Positions 694-53,144 of a DNA stretch of 64,000 nt are shown here, piece by piece (the first letter of the stretch is position 1; every line of letters starts with the position of its first letter). Location of the stretch: assembly GCA_000004985.1 (NCBI GenBank), contig GG738929.1; one strand, given 5' to 3'. The translations under genes and the position numbers were made by a program. Below the pieces are notes generated by a model. The model did no database searches. It saw only the letters and a program-made list of their open reading frames with translations, and was not told where the DNA came from. The stretch is from Naegleria gruberi (lineage: Eukaryota).

Positions 694-1988
694 CTGAATT
701 TTTTTAATTATTTACAATTTTAAATGTGAAAAATGTTAGACAGGTGGTAGAGCATTAACAAGACTCCAAAAGATTAGAAGGAAACAATCGGTAAGTTTCG
801 TTTAAGCCATCATCAGTTTCATCTAACTAAATTTATTGTAACACTGTAATGTCAATCATTAAGACTCCATTAATAGGTTTCTACCAGTTGGTAAATTAGG
901 AACAACCATGTTGCTACTAGCAATTGAAATCTTGTCAAGTTCTGCTTGATAGGTATTTGCATAGGAACGTAAATTTGTGAACACAGTATCAAGGGTTGTT
1001 GTTGTCAATACTATATTATGCAGGTGGGGGTATGTTCAGTATTTTGTTGTTCTCAAAAGCCACAAAAAAAATTTACAAGTCCAATAAAAAACATATTTTG
1101 CAAATATCAGGTCTTTTACTTTGTGGAAGAACACAAAAAATGACAAATAAAACTCAATGGATGATACTCTCTTTTTATTCATCTTTTCGATTTGTTTTTA
1201 ATGAGAAAATTGATTTTGAGGTGTTTTGCAAGATTTATTCACTTATTTTACACCAACAACAAAACCAAAAATGCAATCAATAAAAAATATTGTGATTTTT
1301 TGGCAATCAATTTTTGGCTGGATTTTGTTCATGTTATTAAAGCTGTGCACTACTACATAAAATTGAGACCAGGTAGAAGTACACACAATACATCAAATCG
1401 TTCTAGTTGATCTCTAGAATTTGATTTTAGGTTGCGTGAGATTCTAGTATCTATAGTTTTGGAATTTGAATTGTTTTTAAGAAAAAAGAATCATCTTGGC
1501 CCAGTTTCTTGCTGAAGGTGAGTTTGGAAAACTGAGAGCAGTTGGATGAAGAGAGAATACACTAACATACGCAATACTGGGTCTAGTTTTCAAAAATCTT
1601 GTCGTCATGATTCTAGTATATCCCCTTTACATCGAACTCAACACTCGTATATGATTTTCTCAATATATACACAATAAAATCAATATGTCACAAGGCAATA
1701 ATATAGATGCACATAAATATTAGTAAATTTGAAATATTTACTGGTTTTTGTTGTTTATTGGTTGAGCTATTGAATTTTACCATTAATTTTCGCTAGCGGC
1801 AAGTCAACATTCCCCTCCCTTGATATTATTTGAGTTGAATAAATTCTGTAGTCACCTTACATGATTTAGCATAGACCATACGATTAGTTTTTTCTGTTCA
1901 TTTGCAGCCGGAATATCTTTTTTTATTATATTTTGAAAGGTTTGCTTTTGGAGCTGACACCCTAATATTAATCAACAACTCAATTTTC

Positions 1989-4900
1989 ATGAATAAGTCG
2001 TCATCTAAAAAAATGGAACAAGCCACCAGTTCTGAACCCACAGCAAACAAACAGTTTCGTGCTTACGTTACACAGCAAATATCTTCAATTCCAACAGCAT
2101 CACCAACATGTGCCAACTTTGCTGAACAACAAGATGTAGAAGAAGATCATGACTATCACACAAATGTCAACATTTATTGCCCTCATTGTAAATCATTTTT
2201 CTGTGAAAACTGTCATTCGTTATGTGTTTATTCTTCCTTGGAATCCAACAGTAAAATTCCCATGTCAAAAAAGAAAACAGTACAGGCCGAACATTTAAAA
2301 CATCAGTGGAATATCAATGAGGATTATCAACAAAATATCCAACAAGATGTGATGCAATTATTCATCGTTACGAACAATCTGGTTAGTATGATACAACGAT
2401 GGACAAATGACACAACTAACGTCAATCTACAGGACATTATTGACCAATACGAATTATTTAAAACAGCCACAAGCAAACATATCATCACTCCCTATTTCAA
2501 TAGAACATTTTTAGAACCGCTGACCCCTATTTGTGAAAAAATTTCTATTTTCCACAAAGCACAAGAACAGGTCAACAAATTCTCTGAAATGTTTAAAAAA
2601 TACAATAACAAAGCTCTTGATATAATGGATAGCTTTACTTTGGCTTCCACTGAAATGCGATCATTTTGTAAATCATACCTTAAGATTTCTAATGACAAAA
2701 TGGAGGAATATTTATCTCTAGCAAACACAGCAGAAAAGCTTAAATGGAATGCCATTAATTCCAAAAATCCAATGAAGTGTTGTGTTGTGGGAATTACTAA
2801 TTCTGGTAAAACTACTTTAATGAATGCAATTCTTGGAATGAACCTTTTGCCAAGTAAGGAAGGGAGATGTACAATTGCTAATACAGAATTAAGATATGCA
2901 GATTATGATAAACGTAAAATTGAAATCAAGGAAGAACATGGTACTTTCAACACACTTTCTCAATTTACTTCAGAGTATCTGATGCAACATGAATCAATTC
3001 CTGAAGAAGTTGTATCTACTTTTGGTGTTTCTGAAAAAACCAAATCAGAACAGAAGAAGGATAGAGAATCTCAAAAAACTATAAGAGTTCATTGGGATTC
3101 TCTCTTGTTAAAAACAGGAATAGCCTTTAGTGATACACCTGGATATGATGATATTTATGAAGAGGAAGTTTTATTCAACACTTACAAAAGACAATCAAAG
3201 AAAAAAGCTTTGCCTAAAAATGTAATGGTCAACCCTCAAACATTAGAATTTATTCAAGAATCTGAACTTGTTATTCTAGTAGTTGATATTAATCACACAT
3301 ATACTTCCAAAGATGCTGTTCTAAACTTGTTGGACATTGATGAATTAAAAGGCAAACAAATCATGGTTGTGATGAATAAGTGTAACATGTTTGGAAGTAT
3401 TGGAAAACGTGAAGACAGAGGTTGGGAAAGTTTCATTCACTATTGTGAAGAATATGAAAATACAAAAACTGCATCATCACCTCCATTATTATTACAATTT
3501 TACAAAATGGTAAACAATACTCATGAAAAAGCTAGAACAACATTTGAAGCATGTCTGCTTAATCATATTGATATGATGAGTACAAAAGGTATTTCTGTAA
3601 ACCAAATATATCCATTATCTGCTATGGAATCCCTTTGTTGTAAAGTAGAAGGAACTGAATTGGATTTGCCGTTCACTCTATTTGAAAAAGCACTATTTAA
3701 TATTATGGAAGATATTACAAAGAAGCGTATGTCTAATTTTGCTTCTGTTGCACACTTTTCAGTCAATACATTCCTGAGATCAACTTTGCTATGCAAAAAT
3801 TGGCATGTAAAGATGTATCAAATGCAACTCGAAAAGAAAAAACAACTGGAGGACATATCAAGTCTTGTTGAAAAGTTCAGAGAACGAATTCAACAAATTA
3901 TTCAAGATTTAAGGCAGGACATTATTGAAGTTTTTGAGAGAACATCGAGTCAAAGTAGTTCCAAGAAAATTGAAGAAGCCATGCATATTATTCACACAAA
4001 AGTTTCTGTTGAATTTAAAGAATTCTTGAAGGAACGTATTGCACAAGATCCCAAGTTATCTGTTTCAGATTGGGCCTACATAATTTCCATAACAATATTT
4101 GCAATTCCTATTTCAATAATTTTGCTTGGTATTGCGGTTCTATTAGTCCCAGTGTTGATGCCTATCATGTTTCCATATGTAATGGTAAAAACAATTTTGG
4201 ACATGGTAACAGATTTAAAAAAGAAAAAGAAGAGCAATATTATTGATGAACTAGTTTATAAAAGTGAGAGAATTCAAGTAAGTGAGGAAGAATCAGATAG
4301 TGCTGAAAACGATACTGATGACGTTCCAGAAGTACTCTCCACAACATTATTGGCTCTTGATTCACAAAATCTAGATGTAAATCAAGTCATCCAAAAGATA
4401 ATGCAGAGTTATCCTGATATGTTTTGTCTAGAAATTGAAAAGCATCTAATATCTAAAGTTGAAAATGAGTACAACGACAAACTGAAAACATTTAACTTTG
4501 TACTTTGTAAAGATGGGAAAGAATTAGCATTTTTTAATGCCTGGAAAGAGTTTCAAAAAGATCAGAATGGATGTGAACAGCTTTACAATTACTATTGCAA
4601 GACTTCATCTTTGTTTTTTGATATTAACACAAAATTTTCACTTTCAAATTTGAAATCTTTTGAATTTTGTGGACACGGAGCATTTGGTAAAACCTATCGT
4701 TTAAATAATATTACTGCAATCAAGTATATTTCTACAATTAAGCTTGCTGAACATATTTTAGATAGAGAACTATTTTATAATTCACAACTTTCACATGCAC
4801 ATATTGTTAAAAGCATGCTAATTAAAAAGGAAGAAACTGAAAACGCTTTAAACGGTTACATTTATCAAGAGTATCTCCCACAAACTCTTTCACAATGGGC

Positions 4901-5483
4901 TCTGAACAAACCAATTAACTATAAGAAAGCTCTTAGATATGCTTGTGAAATAGCACTTGGTATGAAATATATTCAATCTTGTAATATCATGCATAGAGAT
5001 TTAGACAAGTCAAACATTATGATTGACAAATTTGATCATATCAAAATTATTGATCTAGGTGTAGCAAAAGAAATGGTTGATAATGCACACACAGCAAATC
5101 AAGGAAAATATAAAACAATGGCACCAGAAGTAAAACGCTCTGGATCTGACTTTGCAATTTATGATTTTAGATGTGACGTTTATTCCTTCGGAATAGTGGT
5201 TAAAGAATTGCTTGATGGTTATGACAGTAGTGAAATTTCATTATTATTAGAGAGATGTTTGGAGAAAGATTTTAAGAATAGAATTGGTGATTGGAATGAA
5301 ATAATATTTACTTTATATAAGAGTTATGAGATGTATGAATTAGATGTGGAACCAACTGAATATTCTAACCAATTGAAAATTGAGGTACAGGAAGTTCAAG
5401 AAGAATCACAAATTGATATTGAGGTATTGAAAAAGGAATTGAAAGATAAGAAAATCATACCAAAAAATTGCATTGTGCAATAA
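1989..5483 (+). CDS. multidomain signalling protein: B-box-like Cys/His zinc finger, P-loop GTPase (ROC/AIG1/IRG-like, DTPG type), predicted TM segment, C-terminal TKL-like protein kinase
   Basis: Track ORF 1902..5483 starts at TTG. The first ATG is at 1989 (MNKSSSKK). Zn-finger-like: YCPHCKSFFCENCHSLC. GTPase: G1 VVGITNSGKTTLMNAILG, G3 FSDTPGYDD, G4-like VVMNKCNMF. Hydrophobic stretch: AYIISITIFAIPISIILLGIAVLLVPVLMPIMFPYVMV. Kinase motifs: GHGAFGKTY, AIKYI, HRDLDKSNIMID, DLGVAKE, MAPEV, DVYSFGIVV. Single exon, TAA stop. Confidence 0.7.
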   Translation: MNKSSSKKMEQATSSEPTANKQFRAYVTQQISSIPTASPTCANFAEQQDVEEDHDYHTNVNIYCPHCKSFFCENCHSLCVYSSLESNSKIPMSKKKTVQAEHLKHQWNINEDYQQNIQQDVMQLFIVTNNLVSMIQRWTNDTTNVNLQDIIDQYELFKTATSKHIITPYFNRTFLEPLTPICEKISIFHKAQEQVNKFSEMFKKYNNKALDIMDSFTLASTEMRSFCKSYLKISNDKMEEYLSLANTAEKLKWNAINSKNPMKCCVVGITNSGKTTLMNAILGMNLLPSKEGRCTIANTELRYADYDKRKIEIKEEHGTFNTLSQFTSEYLMQHESIPEEVVSTFGVSEKTKSEQKKDRESQKTIRVHWDSLLLKTGIAFSDTPGYDDIYEEEVLFNTYKRQSKKKALPKNVMVNPQTLEFIQESELVILVVDINHTYTSKDAVLNLLDIDELKGKQIMVVMNKCNMFGSIGKREDRGWESFIHYCEEYENTKTASSPPLLLQFYKMVNNTHEKARTTFEACLLNHIDMMSTKGISVNQIYPLSAMESLCCKVEGTELDLPFTLFEKALFNIMEDITKKRMSNFASVAHFSVNTFLRSTLLCKNWHVKMYQMQLEKKKQLEDISSLVEKFRERIQQIIQDLRQDIIEVFERTSSQSSSKKIEEAMHIIHTKVSVEFKEFLKERIAQDPKLSVSDWAYIISITIFAIPISIILLGIAVLLVPVLMPIMFPYVMVKTILDMVTDLKKKKKSNIIDELVYKSERIQVSEEESDSAENDTDDVPEVLSTTLLALDSQNLDVNQVIQKIMQSYPDMFCLEIEKHLISKVENEYNDKLKTFNFVLCKDGKELAFFNAWKEFQKDQNGCEQLYNYYCKTSSLFFDINTKFSLSNLKSFEFCGHGAFGKTYRLNNITAIKYISTIKLAEHILDRELFYNSQLSHAHIVKSMLIKKEETENALNGYIYQEYLPQTLSQWALNKPINYKKALRYACEIALGMKYIQSCNIMHRDLDKSNIMIDKFDHIKIIDLGVAKEMVDNAHTANQGKYKTMAPEVKRSGSDFAIYDFRCDVYSFGIVVKELLDGYDSSEISLLLERCLEKDFKNRIGDWNEIIFTLYKSYEMYELDVEPTEYSNQLKIEVQEVQEESQIDIEVLKKELKDKKIIPKNCIVQ

Positions 5484-8400
5484 TTATAAAAATTGTTCCA
5501 ACGAATTGTTTATTACAAAAAAAATGAAAGAAATCATAACCATTGTCCATTCATATTGGCTATTTGACTCTTTCATGCTTCTATCAAGCCATTATCACCA
5601 ACAAATCCCTTTTCTTTAGATCCAGCCACTGGAATGAATTGATTAGTTTTTGGGTGATCCTTCTAATTCGAATATTATTTGTTGTAAGGTTGCTTTAAAA
5701 CTATTCGCTCCTCAGTTTCATGATTCCATCATGTTGGGGAATGTCATGTCTTTGCTAAATTCAAATCATCTGGAAATACTTCAACATTTGACTCAAGTTT
5801 GTATTGTTATAACAATACAGATTGTGAAAATGTTGTGGTGGTGTTGAACTTTCCTATCCAAATAGTGGTCCATCGTATGTTAAATATACCAACCAGACAT
5901 GTCTTCCACAATGTTCCAAAGCTATAAACGTGTCCAAAGTGTTCTCAGAAAAAAGATGCTACCTTCTGTACTTGTACCAGATTGTTTAATCAATGATGAT
6001 TGTATTGAAAGTGGTTCATCATAGGGTAGAAGTGAATGTATCAATCAAGTTTGTTCTGTTAAAACTTGTGCATCCAATAGTGATCGTTACAGCTGATTGT
6101 TGAACAAATTCTTCATTTTCTGAATAAATCAATTGATTTCCATATTCTCCCAAGTGGATATCAGTGTATAATATTTTTGTGGATGTTCTAGAAATATGTT
6201 ATCACATCCTAACAAGATCAAGAAGTCAGATAATGATGGAGGATATGAGGAAGTGTTTAATCTTAAGCTTGGAGAGTGATGTGTCTTATAGTTTGATTTC
6301 AATTTTTAAAACTGTATTTCTTCAGTGAACATACACTGAATTTGACCAACAGCAAGTGGAATCAATTAAATAATTTCGTTCATCAGAGTCATGTATTTAG
6401 GATGATATTTGTCATATCTGTCCACAAAGAATTTGGTAACATTTTCATTGGAAAATGAGGCAGCAATTGGAGAGTTACATGAAAGAATTTCAATTCACCT
6501 CTCTTTGTGATAGATTCTAAATTTTGAACCTTTTCAATATAAATATCCATCAAGAGAGCTAGCAAAATACAGAATGCCATGATATTGAGAATGAGAATAG
6601 TCACAACTAGACATTTAGTGTTGGACATAGAAACTGAACCACAACATGTATTCACCTCAATACCTCCAATTCCATCTCGCATTGGAACGCTTTATAATAG
6701 GTTATTGTTGCTGCGGGATTCGAAGAATGAGTAGGTGAAAAGGATGATGCTTTGGAAATTCTTGTTAATATCCATAAAAAGGAGGATTATAACTCTGGCT
6801 TATTCGAACTGAAGTTGAGAAAGGATACTCAAACCAATGACGAAGCAAAACATTGGCTTGTTTGATTCTCATTTGTTGTGTTGTTTGATGGTCTTGCCAG
6901 TTGTTAGTTCATTGGTGGCCTCGTTCAATAGAGAAAAGCAAGAACGTTGGCAAATTGGAAGAGCTAAAGTAATTGTCTGAATGATACAATGGCAGATCTA
7001 AAACTTAAGGAACTTTTCAAAAAGTTTAGTATAGAGAACTTCCTCATCTATATGCAGAATATATGCAATATTGTATTGGAAAGAGAATGACATTTCACCA
7101 ACTCCACTTAAAATGATATCTCCTGAGTGTACTGCTTGATGTTGAAATGAAGCTTAGTGTAATTCAGGTGGTTGAGCATATCACAGAGACAAAATAAATC
7201 TTAATCTTACAACAATACTAGTAACTGGTTTGTGTTAAATGTTGGTATAAAGGTAGAATTAATTGTTTTTAGGATTGATTGGAGATATTTCACTTTGACT
7301 GGTAGATTTTGGAATGAGATAATCTTGTTTGTACAGTAATGTTTACGTGGTGCTGTTTTAATATCTTCATCATAGTAACAAAAACATTTACCAGTAGCTA
7401 AATTTGAAGGTTCCAACATTTTGGAACAATTATGTTTCAAGCTAACATCATTATTGGATTTGTGCCATAATTGTAGGTTGAAACTTTTCCCAAACTACTC
7501 TTGATGGTTGGTGGAGTAATTTAATAACAATATCAACAACAACCTTGAAACAACAATCCAATAACAATTATTACGATTTTCACGAATAGATTCAAAAATG
7601 TTTAAACCTAGAGTGTCGAGTAATCACATATGGACTCTTACCGGTGAACTCTCATCATAATCTTCTTACAATAAATGTAAGGTTTGGTGATGTTGTGAAT
7701 GATGTTTCGTAGTTGTGTTGATGTGGTTGATGTAGTTGGTCTCATCATATTTTTGAATAAGAGGTTGCTGGTATTTTTTTTTAAAATAATAAAATAAATA
7801 ATTAAAATTGAACTAAAGAACTTTCAAATCCATTGATTCAGAGGAACACCAAGGGGAGAGTGAAGTAATATTGAGTGTAATTTTCTAATCAACCACCTTC
7901 TGGTTATTATATTTAAGAAATGCTGTTTGTTGCAATTCTTTGGTCTGCACCGATTTCTTCGTACGTTCAATACAGTTCCTAATTTATAAATTCCTAATTT
8001 ATTTAATTCCTTAAAAATAATTTGCGAATGTATCCAATAAAATATAAGTTTTCGTAATTGTATCGAAAGTTGCATTGTGCTATATCCTGGAGCAAGGACT
8101 TTAAATTCATTTGCTTATCTCTATGATGCAAAGTATTTTTAACAAAAAATGTATTACAACGAAGGTTTATTTTCTGACACAACGAAATCATGATTTCAAC
8201 CTCTTGATTTTTGCAGGTGTCCTTATTACATAAATTAACACGATTTGAGAATAGGTATTTTTCTATTTTTACTCATATCTCAAGAACGAAAGTTAGCCAT
8301 TCACTTCTCACCTCATGATGACATTAACAAGGGAAGGTTTTAAAGGTTTCGTATTTTCAAATGTTGGAGTTTATGTAATTTTAGAGGATTTGAGGATAAC

Positions 8401-9112
8401 TACTTCACAAAATCGAATAATTACAAGATGATTAACATATCAACGAGTGTTATAATGTGTTCCAATCGATAAATATTTTAAAAACATTGTCTTCGGCTCT
8501 GAGAGTACCCATTAGCTTAAATTATATATAACAAGAAGCACTCTCTTAAATTTTAATCAATATTAATAAAATTCATGTGTTGTTAGAACTGTTACTGATT
8601 GTGTGAATCATAATGTTGTGTATTTATTTTAAAAACATATATCAACTTGGAACCGTTCAGTGAAATCTCAACATTTACGCCTGGCCAATACCAACTTTCC
8701 GCCCTGGGAACACCTCAACAGTGTTAGTCTTGTTATTAATTGTGAATCCTTTTGTTAGCAAAATATCGTTCTCTTTTTTCAATTCTTCTGCAAATAGAGT
8801 TATTTCTTTCTCTTCTCCCTCCCATATTGCTAATGGTGTTGTTATCTTTCTTAACTGACCACTCCCAAAAAAATTTACTATTAATAACTGTCATAACCAG
8901 ATTGTTAAATTTGTTTTTGAAGCAGCATCTAAATTAAGACAAATAATAAAATCAGAAATGTCATTTACAAATTTTGAACAATGACAACATTCTTTAGACT
9001 TGGCATTTGATTCTCATGCTCAATCATCCATATTTGGTGGACTTATCACCAATATCCTCCCTTACATCTATCTCACAATGTTTATGTTTCTTACAATAAT
9101 GTTATTACATAG

Positions 9113-10251
9113 TTGTATACATGGCTGGTTCAGTTAAAATCCCAACTAATCCCCTCGCAACAATTTTCCTTTTACGAAAAAGGAACAATGCTGATTCCTC
9201 ACGAAAAGAAAGAAGTTGCACTCAACCTTATTCAAGATTTTCTCCAATCTCGAAAATTCGTTCGAATCAAACTGGTAGCTCAATTTATAGGAAAGCTGGA
9301 ATTCGCCTCTTTAGCAGAACAATACATAATGCCTCTGTTAAACAGATTACGAGTTTCAGTAGTAGGATGGTCAGTCTTTATGCTCATCAACAGAGGCCCC
9401 ATGACGGACCTAATAAGATTAAAGTCCATCATTTCAAACTCAAAAGGTTCTCTCCTAGATCTAAATCAACCTTTCCCAATTATAATCAATTCAGATGCTT
9501 CTCCTCAAGGATAAGGTGTCCACTCCTCAAACACTGTTATTATAGGAAGATTTCACACCCACGATCATATCAATTCGAAAGAAATGATGGCAATTCTTCA
9601 ATTCTTCATCGAAGCAAAATCACAAAAGCTCTTCCCAAGAGGAACCTATTTCGAGATAAGGTGGACAATTCAACTGCCTTCTCATACATAAGAAAAGGAT
9701 ATGGAACTTTCGAACACCTCGCTCAAATAGCAAGAAAAATTTGGAAAATTCTAATAGAATGTTGCTGGAGAATTGCAAAAGTAATTTACATTCCCTCAGA
9801 GAAAAATTCAATTGCAAACAAATTAAGCCTTTTAAGCGATTGGAAATCATCACCAGAATTGATAAATATGGTAGAAAAAGAATTCGGAAACCACACCATA
9901 GACAGATTTGCAACATCAGAGTCAGCAACAACGATCCATTTCAACTCTTTGTTAGAAAACGATGCGTTTCAAGAACTTTGGGAACAAAACTCAATCAATT
10001 ATTGTGTTCCTCCAATAGGTCTAATCCCACAAGCTCTATTTCACTTGATCCGATCAAAGGCCATAGGAACATTCGTAGTTCCTTATTGGCCAACAGCTTA
10101 CTGGTTCCCGATCTTGCTAAAGATATCTTTAGAACAGATACGTGTTCCGCTCCAATGGCTTATAACAGAGCATTACAACGAACTGCACAAACAATCAGAC
10201 AATATTTCGTTCATGGCGGTCAAAGTGAATGGAATGCTCAACTTTCAATGA
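9113..10251 (+). pseudogene. retrotransposon pol fragment (RT thumb, RNase H, DIRS-type MT-like region), broken by a frameshift near 9515
   Basis: Frame of 9113..9514: KFVRIKLVAQFIGKLEFASLAEQ (RT thumb-like), ending in PIIINSDASPQG, the start of the RNase H DAS motif. The reading then continues in the frame of 9121..10251: KGYGTFEHLAQIARKIW...IANKLSLLSDW...FGNHTIDRFATSESAT (RNase H C-terminal ADALSR/DRFA pattern). Then NYCVPPIGLIPQALFHLIRSKAIGTFVVPYWPTAYWFPILL, like the post-RNase H domain of DIRS/Ngaro elements. No RT palm (YxDD) survives upstream. The first ~130 aa of track ORF 9121..10251 are an out-of-frame overlap. Confidence 0.65.
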
Positions 10252-11141
10252 GATGTCAGGCTTTATCTACTGCTCTTGCAGAATCGACAAAGTATTCAGA
10301 ATTTTCTTATTTCTGTCTACTCCATAATTTAGACAAATCAGATGTTAGAGCCCCAGAATTATTCGCTTGCTATCTTGCGGTTCACAAGAAGCTCTACAGA
10401 TTGAATAGTTTGAAACCTACGTTGGATTTCTATTCAAATTTGGAAGGATGGTCCGTAAATTATTCTAATCAATTCTTTAGAATCAAACAAGGTTTGAATA
10501 AGTTTTATTCACGAGCCGATATTGTTAAACATAAGAGAAGTGGAATCTCTGCTCTCAATGTCAAGCAATTCATTGATAGGATCTCTATTAAAGACCCTTA
10601 TCTTCACATGTTGTCTTGTGCCATACTTTCCGTTGGCATTAGATTATTAGCAAGACCTGGTCAACTGGCTAATTTATCATGGTCTTGTGTTAAACTTGAT
10701 ACTCCTTTTATCGGTTGGGTTACTTTTGATCTTTCTGGTCACAAAACAGACCAATTATCTGACATGAAGAAACTCCTATTGAACCATAAAGAGGAAATAA
10801 GAAATACTGTCCAGTTTATAACCTTAGAAGATATGGATTATGTTAAACATATTAAGGAAGACGATTCTCCATTATTTTCGTTACTGTTTGATGAATATTT
10901 CACTCCTACTCAAATTTCTAATATTATTTCAAGCCCCATGAGCTCTATTGGTGTTCAAAACACTTCAGGCCATAGCCTTCGTATAAGTGCAGCTACTAAG
11001 CTGGCTTCTAAGGGTGTGTCTCAATCTATGATTGAGACAGCTGGTAATTGGGTGCCTAATTCAAAAATTAGATTGAGATATCAACGTAGAATTGGCCTAG
11101 CTACTCATGGTTTAACTACTTCTATTATGAGAACTGATTAA
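9741..11141 (+). CDS. DIRS-type tyrosine recombinase ORF (catalytic domain approx 10400..11141), overlapping the pol frame as in DIRS elements
   Basis: C-terminal half carries the tyrosine-recombinase box: LLARPGQLANLSW...SGHKTD...GHSLRISAATKLASKGVSQSMIETAGNWVPNSKIRLRYQRR. That is the R...K...HxxR...Y arrangement. The 5' third (9741..10260) only overlaps the pol frame. Confidence 0.65.
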   Translation: MENSNRMLLENCKSNLHSLREKFNCKQIKPFKRLEIITRIDKYGRKRIRKPHHRQICNIRVSNNDPFQLFVRKRCVSRTLGTKLNQLLCSSNRSNPTSSISLDPIKGHRNIRSSLLANSLLVPDLAKDIFRTDTCSAPMAYNRALQRTAQTIRQYFVHGGQSEWNAQLSMRCQALSTALAESTKYSEFSYFCLLHNLDKSDVRAPELFACYLAVHKKLYRLNSLKPTLDFYSNLEGWSVNYSNQFFRIKQGLNKFYSRADIVKHKRSGISALNVKQFIDRISIKDPYLHMLSCAILSVGIRLLARPGQLANLSWSCVKLDTPFIGWVTFDLSGHKTDQLSDMKKLLLNHKEEIRNTVQFITLEDMDYVKHIKEDDSPLFSLLFDEYFTPTQISNIISSPMSSIGVQNTSGHSLRISAATKLASKGVSQSMIETAGNWVPNSKIRLRYQRRIGLATHGLTTSIMRTD

Positions 11142-11901
11142 ATATATACTTTTATTATTTTCTAGGGACTAATCCATTTGTCTTAATTTAATATTTTATT
11201 ATTTTGTGGTTTTAAAAACATTTATATATTGCGTAACCGCTCCAAGTAATTTTTACACACAATGAATTTTTTATAGATTTTGAGCAAATAAAGTCTTGAA
11301 AATAGTTGATAAGGTAGAAAACTTCTATCACCCTGTGTGTTAAGGCAACGTAGTATTTTACTGTCATATACCTAGGATTCTCCAAAAATCCAATACTTAT
11401 TTATTTTTAATACAGGGCATAATATGACAGTAAAACAACCATATTCGAGAGTAGTTGTGATAAGAACTCTTTCATGAATAAAAAAGTACCTGTAAAAAAT
11501 TGTAAAGTCCTGTAAAATAATTACAATTGGTGGTTTTTCACAAGTAAAAAAATGCCTTAACACCTACACCAGCACTAAGGTTTTAATAAATTCCAACTTG
11601 TAAATTTTTTCCAAGTCCAAATTGTGTTTCATACGACTAAGCGCATGTCTTGTCCACATTGACAAGCACAATTCAACAACAATAAACAATAAATTATTTA
11701 TTTATTAATTATTAGTAATTATTATTATCAGGTGATAACAATCTAGGCAGGCAGGAAGGTTTGATTGATGGCCTTATCAACAACTGTAACGACTGCCGTA
11801 ATAAAATGGTGAATAAGTAAATTCCAAAAACGATCAATGAATGTAAAAATCACTGGACCGGTTACGCAATATATACATCCGAAAAGGGGTCAAACTAAAT
11901 C

Positions 11902-11951
11902 NNNNNNNNNNNNNNNNNNNNNNNNNNNNNNNNNNNNNNNNNNNNNNNNNN
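11902..11951. other. assembly gap (50 N)
   Basis: Run of n characters. Lies immediately 3' of the retroelement, as expected for a repeat-induced scaffold gap. Confidence 0.97.
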
Positions 11952-12009
11952 ACAAAGCAGAAGTTTGCCGATTCGTTCATAAGATTTAATTGAAAGACTT
12001 CATGTTAAT

Positions 12010-13029
12010 TTATCGATCTTTATGCTTTTCAAGATAGGCATTGGAAATTGCTTTGAAACTAAATTTACCATCCAATCTCTTGAATACTAAACCTTCTCTT
12101 TTGACATTCTTGTTCAAAGATGGCCCATCAGCCATTGCCAAAATCTGCTCTGCTGTATGATTCAATTCCAAATCATCCAAAATTGGGACATGTTTGACAG
12201 TGAATCCGTTATCATTCAATTGCTTCACCAATGATTGTCGTTCAATTGGTGTCAAATACTGAGCCTTATCAATATCATAAATATCAAACAAGTAAAAATC
12301 TTGACCTTTCAATTTTTCCAAATTTCCTTGAATTGATTCTCCAATAATTTCACCTTGTAGGGCCAAATTTCTATTTAAAAATTGTAATCCTTCAATCATT
12401 TTGTTTCTCCTAGCAGCATGCCATTGTGCATTAGTTGCAGTTTCTCTCAATTCCCAATTTCTTCCACATACACCAATATGGTCATCTTTCCTATATACAG
12501 TCATTGATGAGCCATCCAATTTCACAGTCACTTCAAATTTTTGACCCTTATTTTCTTCAATTTGTGGAATTAAGTTTTGTACACGTTCCTGATCTGTCTT
12601 ACTAATAAAAGTTGGAAATTCACCCAAAATTTCACCAGAAAGATTAGTGGAAATTGGTGGTTCCCACTTTGTAATTCCTAGAATTTCTGTAACATCATCA
12701 CCCACTTGATTGGAAGCCAATTCTGGGAATCTATCCATTGGCAAGAACAACCCTTGGCTCAATTGACCTCTCAACCTAGCAGTACGAAGACGAGTACCTC
12801 TTTGACCTTCATAATCAATAACTTGTTTTGAAAGCATTGGATACCTATCATTATCTTCCTTTATAAAACTATCAATTTCAAAATAGACTCCCCTATCACC
12901 TTGTTTAAATTCTCCCTTCTTGATCACACAAGTCCAACCATCAACATGGCAACATTCAATAGCTTCTGCACCTGCAATAGGAGTAATTTCTCCTGCAGTA
13001 CGAATAGTAGCAAGTTTACGTACACCCAT
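12010..13029 (-). CDS. ATP-dependent RNA ligase, Rnl5 family (nick-sealing ligase), KxDG nucleotidyltransferase
   Basis: Track ORF 12010..13053 starts at TTG. The ATG at 13029 gives a 339-aa product MGVRKLATIRTAGEITPIAG... The covalent nucleotidyltransferase motif KLDGSS (VTVKLDGSSMTVY) puts its lysine at residue 170. Length and Lys170 match my recollection of Naegleria gruberi NgrRnl. Single exon. Confidence 0.8.
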   Translation of the reverse strand: MGVRKLATIRTAGEITPIAGAEAIECCHVDGWTCVIKKGEFKQGDRGVYFEIDSFIKEDNDRYPMLSKQVIDYEGQRGTRLRTARLRGQLSQGLFLPMDRFPELASNQVGDDVTEILGITKWEPPISTNLSGEILGEFPTFISKTDQERVQNLIPQIEENKGQKFEVTVKLDGSSMTVYRKDDHIGVCGRNWELRETATNAQWHAARRNKMIEGLQFLNRNLALQGEIIGESIQGNLEKLKGQDFYLFDIYDIDKAQYLTPIERQSLVKQLNDNGFTVKHVPILDDLELNHTAEQILAMADGPSLNKNVKREGLVFKRLDGKFSFKAISNAYLEKHKDR

Positions 13030-13288
13030 AGTGTTATTATTATTATTTAACAATTATTAAAATAAATAATATTATTGGATAATATTATCTCCGGTCTCTT
13101 AGAGTTTTTAAAAGCAAATTGAAAATAAATTCCTTCTTGCTGATGGATTTTTTTTTAAGTTTGAAAATAAAAATGTTCCAAGTTCTCCTGAAATCAGTTA
13201 AATTGAATTTGTGTTTCTCCTTGAAATTGCACTGTAGCTCTAAGAGAGCATATATTACAATGTTAATGTGAGTTCATCAATATATTCT

Positions 13289-21570: not shown

Positions 21571-21624
21571 TGAAGATTCGTTGGTGGTTAACTGATATTA
21601 AAATATTTTCATAATGAATAAGAT

Positions 21625-21696
21625 TCCCGTGTAGTCCAATGGCTAGGATACCTGGCTTTCACCCAGGAGGTCCGGGTTCAATTCCCGGCATGGGAG
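21625..21696 (+). tRNA. tRNA-Glu (anticodon TTC)
   Basis: TCCCGTG-TA-GTCC-AATGGCTA-GGAT-A-CCTGG-CTTTCAC-CCAGG-AGGTC-CGGGT-TCAATTC-CCGGC-ATGGGA-G. 7-bp acceptor stem (one G.U), anticodon loop CTTTCAC gives UUC, T-loop TTCAATT. T-run follows 10 nt downstream. Confidence 0.9.
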
Positions 21697-21795
21697 AATC
21701 ATTTTGCTTTTATCAATTTTCTAATTTATACAAAGAGAAAAGGATTCAGTATTTTCTGTTTGCAACCTAGTTGTTAAATATTTTAGTATCATAAT

Positions 21796-52945: not shown

Positions 52946-52987
52946 ATTGATTTTTACATGTAAGGAAATTGTTTAAAAAGATTATTA

Positions 52988-53062
52988 ACCCGCTACCAGG
53001 ACTTGAACCTGGATCATGCGGAATGAATAAGTCGCATATTCTAACCATTGAACTACAGCGGG
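52988..53062 (-). tRNA. tRNA gene with atypical anticodon arm. Anticodon unresolved, possibly Ile-UAU with a micro-intron, or a pseudogene
   Basis: Minus-strand read: CCCGCTG-TA-GTTC-AATGGTTA-GAAT-ATGCG-ACTTATTCATTC-CGCAT-GAT-CCAGG-TTCAAGT-CCTGG-TAGCGGG-T (75 nt). Acceptor, D and T arms are well formed (T-loop TTCAAGT). The anticodon stem ATGCG/CGCAT encloses a 12-nt loop ACTTATTCATTC instead of 7. Confidence 0.65.
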
Positions 53063-53144
53063 TTGTGTAAATTATCTAAAAATATAATCATGATCAGCAT
53101 ACGCTTACAAATAAAAACATACCGAATGCAATGTTTATTGAAAA

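Follow-up and report, generated by a model that had tools for sequence, protein, structure and literature searches.

The plus strand of a 64,000-nucleotide stretch of the Naegleria gruberi genome (contig GG738929.1 of assembly GCA_000004985.1; hereafter the window) carries, between positions 5484 and 11951, the motifs of a retroelement with a tyrosine recombinase (YR), preceded by DNA poor in open reading frames (ORFs) and followed by a break in the scaffold. The locus raises the question of how much of this interval belongs to the element, how old the copy is and whether its kind is new. An earlier note, made from the sequence alone, had taken the interval for one old, decayed element of the DIRS order, about 6 kb long and reaching the gap, and had suggested an uncharacterised family. 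Our comparison with related sequences indicates instead that the plus-strand segment from 9122 to about 11221 very probably belongs to a compact DIRS1-like family of N. gruberi, with units of about 4 kb, as a 5'-truncated copy that has become a pseudogene. The features are summarized in Table 1.

Table 1. Features of the interval and positions of the gag stops in related loci (window coordinates unless another locus is named)
Feature	Position	Strand	Basis or remark
Repeat R1, dispersed, non-coding	5798..7789	.	Alignment with L089; sharp left end at 5798
ORF-poor DNA between R1 and the element	7790..9121	.	No Pfam match, DIRS similarity or coding signal
Stop-free second frame overlapping pol ('X' frame), by which the recombinase ORF is extended N-terminally	9100..10247	+	Frame switches at the 9665 deletion
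pol remnant: last part of RT (thumb/connection), RNase H, MT-like	9122..10251	+	L086 pol residues 235-626; frame change at 9665
Premature stop TAA in the pol frame	9512..9514	+	L086 has TAT (Tyr) in SDASPQGYG
1-nt deletion, GGGGGG to GTGG-, shifting the pol frame inside RNase H	9664..9666	+	Alignment to L086
Tyrosine recombinase coding region	10248..11141	+	297 codons against 304 in L086
3' non-coding end	11142..11221	+	20-nt AT-rich insertion, then CTAGGGACTAATCCATTTGT (11162-11181); terminus ...AAAAACAT at about 11221 (+/-5)
Foldback	11220..11878	.	Arms 11220-11314 and 11772-11878 around about 460 nt; most likely outside the element
Assembly gap, 50 N	11902..11951	.	23 nt past the right foldback arm
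gag stops	L086 1149-1151; L002 1198; L003 1037; L087 956; L091 1275; L023 96; L029 409

Comparison with an intact relative

By searching with the gag of a related contig, we reached L086, a contig of 3916 bp in the European Nucleotide Archive (ENA) assembly ERZ929261, which was built from run ERR1078381 (PRJEB11402) of a sample labelled metagenome. L086 has three intact ORFs, for gag (350 aa), pol (626 aa) and the recombinase (304 aa), and it ends at the recombinase stop codon, the element termini being absent from the contig. In its pol, residues 93-256 match the Pfam domain RVT_1 of reverse transcriptase (RT) with a score above the cut-off (E = 1.7e-23), residues 490-549 form a Dam-like block (E = 4e-4), and its recombinase matches Phage_integrase with E = 6.5e-6 (26.5 bits against a cut-off of 27.1). 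The alignment of window positions 9122-11141 to L086 1825-3914 has ten indels and, over its 2019 aligned bases, 59 mismatches (97.1% identity). With blastn, the identity of the pol remnant to L001 and L086 was 93% with gaps counted and 97% over aligned bases.

The RT thumb, RNase H, methyltransferase-like (MT-like) and W..P.W blocks, which the earlier note had seen on the plus strand, lie there from about 9113 in the order of DIRS elements, and homology bears them out. A protein rebuilt across the stop and the frameshift (Table 1) matched six proteins, the best of which (P0001, carrying RVT_1) was 88% identical over 99% of the query; the proteins matched are RT-RNase H-MT proteins of 626-640 aa with an RVT_1 domain, on short contigs ordered gag-pol-YR. 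The RNase H motifs DAS/E/DN.T/AD.LSR are conserved in L086 and its relatives (alignment A1), and the columns of the MT-like block DRFA...PP...W..W are invariant across six relatives; Pfam Dam matched the window with 21.7 bits (E = 1.7e-4), under its curated cut-off. The overlapping ORF with an R...HSLR...Y recombinase domain also proved to have homologues. The recombinase part matched seven proteins, including three annotated N. gruberi proteins, and Pfam Phage_integrase matched the window with E = 1.4e-4 (22.2 bits against the curated cut-off of 27.1). The R, HxxR, W and Y motifs are kept, and RLLARPG, GHSLRI and RLRYQRR occur in both the window and L086. Other N. gruberi copies comprise NAEGRDRAFT_72065, NAEGRDRAFT_76874 and two further families, and the annotation of this genome holds at least three recombinase families in about nine fragments. 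With homologous proteins and further copies among the annotated proteins, the motifs are not a chance YR-like ORF, the case that the note had named as its refutation.

The homology to L086 begins abruptly at 9122, at pol residue 235, which is 27 residues past YIDD, and of the RT domain the window copy keeps just about 20 residues at its end. The absence of an RT palm was thus correctly noticed. Since the homology starts so abruptly, the copy lacks gag, the 5' end and the fingers and palm of RT outright, and these parts have not decayed in place; blastn with L086 1-1824 found no match in the entire window. The frameshift that had been placed near 9515 is in fact the in-frame stop at 9512-9514 (TAT to TAA), and the frame changes at the 1-nt deletion at 9665. 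In addition, the fourth and last acidic residue of RNase H is changed from Asp to Asn (ADKLSRL to ANKLSLL, about 9815-9835), an Asp (D483 in alignment A1) that is invariant in six relatives.

The ATG of the recombinase overlaps the TGA of pol as ATGA. Within the recombinase, indels of +1, -2 and -2 at 10755, 10764 and 10833 leave 70 nt out of frame, and in comparison with five related families this stretch replaces about 23 residues of the conserved ETPIEPYRGNKKYCP... segment. An 18-nt deletion lies near 10289-10293 in the recombinase region. Apart from the indels that change the frame, six deletions relative to L086 are multiples of three (3, 18, 9, 18, 6 and 12 nt) and probably arose while the lineage was still coding. 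The codons from 10155 to 11141 correspond to the GenBank 'predicted protein' EFC36492.1 / XP_002669236.1 (NAEGRDRAFT_75764) on a scaffold of 189,881 bp.

Since the copy is 97% identical to the intact L086, it is, by this measure, young and broken and not old, as had been supposed. From the loss of gag and the RT core, the premature stop, the frameshifts and the change in the RNase H active site, we conclude that it is predicted to be incapable of autonomous movement and of making functional proteins. The reading as a non-autonomous copy of a YR retroelement with an MT-like domain is therefore supported, at the grade of DIRS1 or PAT.

The sequences L086, L089, L090 and L091 all come from ENA ERZ929261 (ERR1078381, PRJEB11402). 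The sample evidently contained an amoeba of the N. gruberi complex, as two unrelated sequences of the window have 97%-identical counterparts in it. Members of three DIRS-like families are present in this assembly, one of them (L086) with all three ORFs intact, and the sample is a possible source of active copies.

Upstream region

No other stretch of the window that lacks open frames of 120 codons or more is as long as 5484-9099 (3616 bp; the next is 1452 bp), which agrees with the earlier description of it as the only long ORF-poor stretch. The further suggestion that it represents the gag and RT part plus a terminal repeat did not hold. In a six-frame Pfam search of 5484-9121, there was a single sub-threshold, unrelated match (L27_1, E = 0.1). 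A tblastn search for RT remnants, as the note had proposed, was carried out on 5484-9121 with Gag, Pol and YR sequences from L001-L004, which represent three related families, and gave a best E of 0.55, against 0.04-2.7 in shuffled DNA. No match of the upstream DNA was found by tblastx or blastn among 86 DIRS-like loci, and codon-usage scoring of it gave no gene-like signal.

A large part of the stretch has a counterpart elsewhere. Window positions 7789-5798 align with 573-2616 of L089 (ENA ERZ929261; window orientation) with 92.5% identity including gaps and about 97% over aligned bases. The alignment contains many indels that are not multiples of three, it has a sharp end, and a different gene flanks the repeat in L089. 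At least 5798-7789 is thus a separate, dispersed, non-coding repeat (R1), unrelated to the DIRS-like element. The adjoining 7790-9121 may continue R1. The upstream 3.6 kb is, on this alignment evidence, not decayed gag and RT, because at 3% divergence the unmatched L086 1-1824 would be expected to align.

A 56-nt palindrome (5782-5835) adjoins the left end of R1. We also considered a 97-aa ORF on the minus strand (6389-6682), the one ORF with a slight codon-usage score, as a gene. A search of 1.8 billion representatives gave a single relative, which belongs to the copy of R1 on L089 and so brought R1 to light; the ORF is probably not a gene.

3' end and downstream foldback

A motif after the recombinase stop, CT(C/A)GG(G/A)AC....CCATT(T/A)GT, is common to four families (the window, L003, L087 and L088), and the tail in the window resembles that of L088 up to AACAT at 11221 (5 of 300 shuffles reach the score). 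After the recombinase of L091, the sequence reads ...AAGAAACAT followed directly by GTTCTTATCG..., with the junction AAACAT/GTTCT, and from GTTCT on it repeats the 5' untranslated region and the start of gag (61-306 = 4079-4324, 97%), extending at least 148 nt into gag. The ends of L003 overlap by 30 nt (1-30 = 4098-4127), which closes a unit of 4097 bp with 137 nt from the recombinase stop to the gag ATG. The tail of L002 matches the head of L086, a score reached by 0 of 300 shuffles. In L002, L003 and L091, the next gag begins only about 35-170 nt after the recombinase stop.

These relatives are assembled as circles or head-to-tail junctions, the unit ending in ...AACAT and starting with GTT.... 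Such ends are consistent with the NTT and NAT termini tabulated for DIRS1-like elements (PMC3266345). In the window, the DNA past AACAT is unrelated to the family, and we infer an intact 3' end at about 11221 (+/-5). The element would thus span about 2.1 kb, from 9122 to about 11221, and would end about 680 bp before the gap, not reach it as proposed.

The spacer of the relatives is an imperfect palindrome about the conserved hairpin GTTCT...GAAGAAC, with a ATGCTCAAAAAA box about 20 nt upstream of the gag ATG. A perfect 15-nt inverted match (8930-8944 and 11176-11190) was considered as the termini of a 2.26-kb element and rejected, as 9 of 200 shuffles reach its score and the registers are inconsistent.

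The nested inverted repeats that the earlier note had described downstream do exist (11220-11314 against 11772-11878), and most likely they lie outside the element to which they had been assigned. They form a foldback of about 660 bp with arms of about 95-107 nt, the outer 46 nt of which are 85% complementary, and the DNA fold has z = -5.9 against shuffles. The arms start exactly at the inferred 3' end of the element. By blastn and tblastx, the foldback showed no similarity to any of the 86 DIRS-like loci. It could be an element resembling a miniature inverted-repeat transposable element or the cause of the gap, for which the AT-rich DNA and hidden repeats would be other candidates; the reported break of 50 N in the scaffold is there (Table 1).

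Alternative explanations

Three other explanations were weighed against a 5'-truncated copy. That a single old element of about 6.4 kb fills 5484-11951, with decayed gag and RT plus a terminal repeat upstream and the inverted repeats as its 3' non-coding part, would account for the position of the only long ORF-poor region of the window, which adjoins the recognisable part. However, the recognisable part is only 3% diverged, so that an equally old upstream part should be alignable too, and none of the searches described above aligned it; about 1.8 kb would be enough for what is missing from the family unit, and the repeat at 5798-7789 has its own end and another flank elsewhere. We therefore consider the single old element very unlikely. 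Still less credible is a functional or domesticated host recombinase encoded by the ORF 10155-11141 (NAEGRDRAFT_75764), although the ORF is uninterrupted over 328 codons, has an annotation as a predicted protein and has retained the motifs R, HxxR and Y. Its out-of-frame stretch replaces residues that are conserved in related families, the ORF is contiguous with a broken pol, the sister copies in the N. gruberi genome are likewise fragments, and the host-gene reading draws its support from an ab initio gene model alone.

An element reaching 11878, with 11220-11314 as the right half of an internal complementary region (ICR) and 11772-11878 as the outer end of a right inverted terminal repeat (ITR) of about 560 nt, is also unlikely, though it deserves more weight than the other two. 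L012 and L028, two distant relatives, show a pattern of similar geometry, the end of the family homology coincides exactly with the start of the left arm, and the reverse complement of the L086 head matches 11156-11220 weakly (10 of 300 shuffles reach the score). On the other hand, the short spacers of L002, L003 and L091 leave no room for an ITR of 560 nt, the reverse complement of the L086 5' region was not found in 11315-11878, and the foldback is unmatched in the DIRS-like loci.

The two distant relatives, which come from metagenomes and whose pol is about 30% identical, show the textbook ITR and ICR architecture of DIRS1 (L012 3816-8597 and L028 1374-6181). In L012, ITRs of 131 nt are 99% complementary, and the ICR (8208-8328) pairs with 50 nt at the left outer end (3816-3865) and with 73 nt at the right outer end (8525-8597). 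Neither L012 nor L028 has an overlap of the pol and recombinase ORFs. A scan of metagenomes for close relatives with termini found only distant ones (32% identity or less) and one N-terminal fragment of 55% identity; the distant relatives served as controls for ITR and ICR, not for the ends of the window family.

Several points weigh against the truncated DIRS1-like copy as we describe it. The Dam and Phage_integrase matches stay under the Pfam cut-offs, so that both domains are assigned from motifs, architecture and published work. The Naegleria origin of L086 is presumed from the 97% identity of two unrelated sequences, and its sample is labelled 'metagenome'. The terminal repeats that separate DIRS1-like from PAT-like elements are not definable for this family, as the window copy is without the left end and L086 stops at the recombinase stop. 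Finally, the position of the 3' end derives from more distant sister families, there being no second copy of the same family.

Overlapping reading frames and the gag stop

The earlier note had found the domains spread over three frames. This is what we see as well, although two of the frames belong to the natural overlap of pol and recombinase in the family. In L086, L002, L003 and L087, the frame common to gag and the recombinase is free of stops across the whole of pol apart from the gag stop. In the +2 frame of pol of these four, 1 stop was observed against 25-40 expected (1000 synonymous-codon shuffles, minimum 13-24), and stops occur in normal numbers in gag and the recombinase gene of these four and in pol of the distant L012. 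In the window, the stop-free frames run from 9100 to 9665 and from 9660 to 11141, and the 1-nt deletion joins the overprinted frame (9100-9665) to the pol frame, giving an ORF of 376 codons (9121-10251). The long ORFs 9121-10251 and 9741-11141 are thus explained by the overprinted frame together with the deletion, as is the overlapping ORF of the earlier note.

We do not present the overprinted frame as a novelty, as long overlaps of pol and YR have already been described (PMC3266345). For DIRS1-like elements, half of 28 annotated elements were found to have a considerable overlap of the ORFs of pol and the recombinase, the catalytic domain lying in the 3' end beyond the overlap (PMC3266345).

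The protein encoded by the overprinted frame (a stretch of 620 codons) is rich in Arg, Ser and Lys and has no Pfam domain, and between families its amino-acid sequence is conserved no better than that of the third frame. Since the stretch is stop-free and yet not conserved in sequence, selection appears to act on its openness only.

The intact relatives have gag and a recombinase ORF of about 920-1020 codons in one frame, the gag stop being the sole interruption, and the open frame begins directly after this stop. The gag stop is always TGA-C: it is TGA followed by CAT, CTA, CTT, CGA or CTC in five Naegleria-type families, and TGA-CAA-TCA or TGA-CAA-TTA (CARYYA-type) in two distant lineages that share the overlap. 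Stop codons are leaky in the contexts UGA-C, UGA-CUA and stop-CARYYA. Tentatively, programmed readthrough of the stop codon might produce a fusion of Gag, linker and recombinase, with pol read in the other frame, a possibility that we rate well below even. Against it, TGA-C overlaps a conserved Asp codon of pol (GAC) and the families are related, which makes the conservation weaker evidence than it looks. Our literature search, beyond whose reach the key reviews lay, found no statement of this readthrough model.

Classification

For the classes of elements, we followed published definitions (PMC7192593, PMC3266345). In the family, as seen in L086, RT and RNase H are encoded together with a tyrosine recombinase and no DDE integrase, the combination that defines the DIRS order, and the recombinase signature R...HxxR...Y is present in the window as well as in L086. 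The MT-like domain, the nature of which we take from PMC4738411, lies downstream of RNase H and excludes Ngaro and VIPER. The long overlap of pol and YR with the catalytic domain in the non-overlapping 3' end, a hallmark of DIRS1-like elements, is also found. As for terminal structures, the window lacks the left end, and the closer relatives have only short inverted sequences around ...AACAT/GTTCT.... Split direct repeats (A1 ... B1 A2 B2) would fit the repeat in L091, the circle of L003 and the match of the L002 tail with the L086 head no better and no worse than tandem copies or circles would, and in the window no A2 follows B. Autonomy is not seen in the window copy, as gag and the RT core are missing and defects have accumulated besides.

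The closest known systems are the DIRS1-like elements, such as DIRS-1 of Dictyostelium discoideum and AcasDIRS1 of Acanthamoeba (3974 bp), which have the same order of gag, a pol with RT, RNase H and MT, and recombinase, the same long ORF overlap, a unit of about 4 kb, GTT.../...CAT ends and frequent truncated copies (PMC3266345). The closer relatives of the window copy differ in having been recovered as junctions of recombinase, short spacer and gag, not as units bounded by ITRs. PAT-like elements (PAT, TOC and kangaroo) share the MT-like domain and the gene set, and the direct repeat of L091 could be read as one of their split direct repeats; as this repeat reaches into gag, it fits a tandem second copy better. 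The literature consulted contrasts the ORF overlap with Ngaro and Viper and does not give the state in PAT-like elements. Ngaro and VIPER share the tyrosine recombinase but are without the MT-like domain and long ORF overlaps, and Crypton DNA transposons share it without RT and RNase H, whereas here RNase H and MT are contiguous with the recombinase.

The family cannot be called uncharacterised in kind. Seven DIRS1-like copies in six families were reported from N. gruberi by Piednoel et al. in 2011, too damaged for phylogeny and of uncertain classification (PMC3266345), and in N. lovaniensis, 0.32% of the genome consists of DIRS elements (PMC6125883). The 2011 set concerns the same host and the same kind of element, and the survey demanded RT, MT and YR within 10 kb; because these were required together, the window fragment without RT would not have been counted. 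As no family descriptions were given, a one-to-one matching with the present families is impossible. The element in the window is new as a member, although dead, but its kind is known, and DIRS1-like elements had been reported from its host before.

An intact member of the family contains gag, pol (RT, RNase H and MT-like) and a recombinase ORF stop-free over all of pol in a second frame. In the standard DIRS model, it would be transcribed and reverse-transcribed, the ends of the cDNA would be joined, and the recombinase would insert the product without a target-site duplication. The window copy has lost the left terminus, gag and the catalytic core of RT and probably kept its 3' terminus. It sits in an islet of repeats between two host genes, with R1 upstream and the foldback and the gap downstream.

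Host context

In the minus-strand ORF 12010-13053, every residue matches the N. gruberi RNA ligase NgrRnl, crystallised as PDB 5COT. The remaining long ORFs of the window are intronless eukaryotic genes for actin, an HMG-box protein, RhoGAP, kinases, a subtilase and Pus10, together with a cyclic-nucleotide phosphodiesterase with receiver and Hpt domains. From the identical RNA ligase and these intronless eukaryotic neighbours, the window is N. gruberi nuclear DNA. A giant-virus or other viral context, which the AT-rich, gene-dense window (G+C about 33%) had suggested, was ruled out by the actin, HMG, RhoGAP and phosphodiesterase genes and the NgrRnl identity.

Rfam and tRNA scans of 5000-12500 gave no match. 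Elsewhere in the window, ARAGORN called a tRNA-like sequence on the minus strand at 52987-53063 with a four-base anticodon (attc) and without an assigned amino acid, and a normal tRNA-Glu(ttc) at 21624-21697. The plus-strand ORF 1902-5483 (1193 aa) has an unusual fusion of a dynamin-type GTPase (residues 294-493) and a C-terminal protein kinase (922-1106).

Conclusions

Between the gene for the dynamin-kinase fusion and that for the well-studied NgrRnl lies a gene-free interval of 6.5 kb, a small islet in which two or more repeats without mutual relationship have come together. Within it, NAEGRDRAFT_75764 would have to be corrected in the annotation from a host gene to a transposon pseudogene. 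The arrangement of gag and recombinase offers a lead on how such elements express their recombinase, and readthrough, if true, would explain mechanistically why the ORFs of DIRS1-like elements overlap over such a length, a feature that the accessible literature has noted and left unexplained. The existence of true DIRS1-like elements outside unikonts was left uncertain by Piednoel et al., as the Naegleria copies were too damaged (PMC3266345). The intact L086 (3.9 kb), which is 97% identical to the window copy and combines RT, RNase H, MT and YR with the ORF overlap, would let a phylogeny settle this question.

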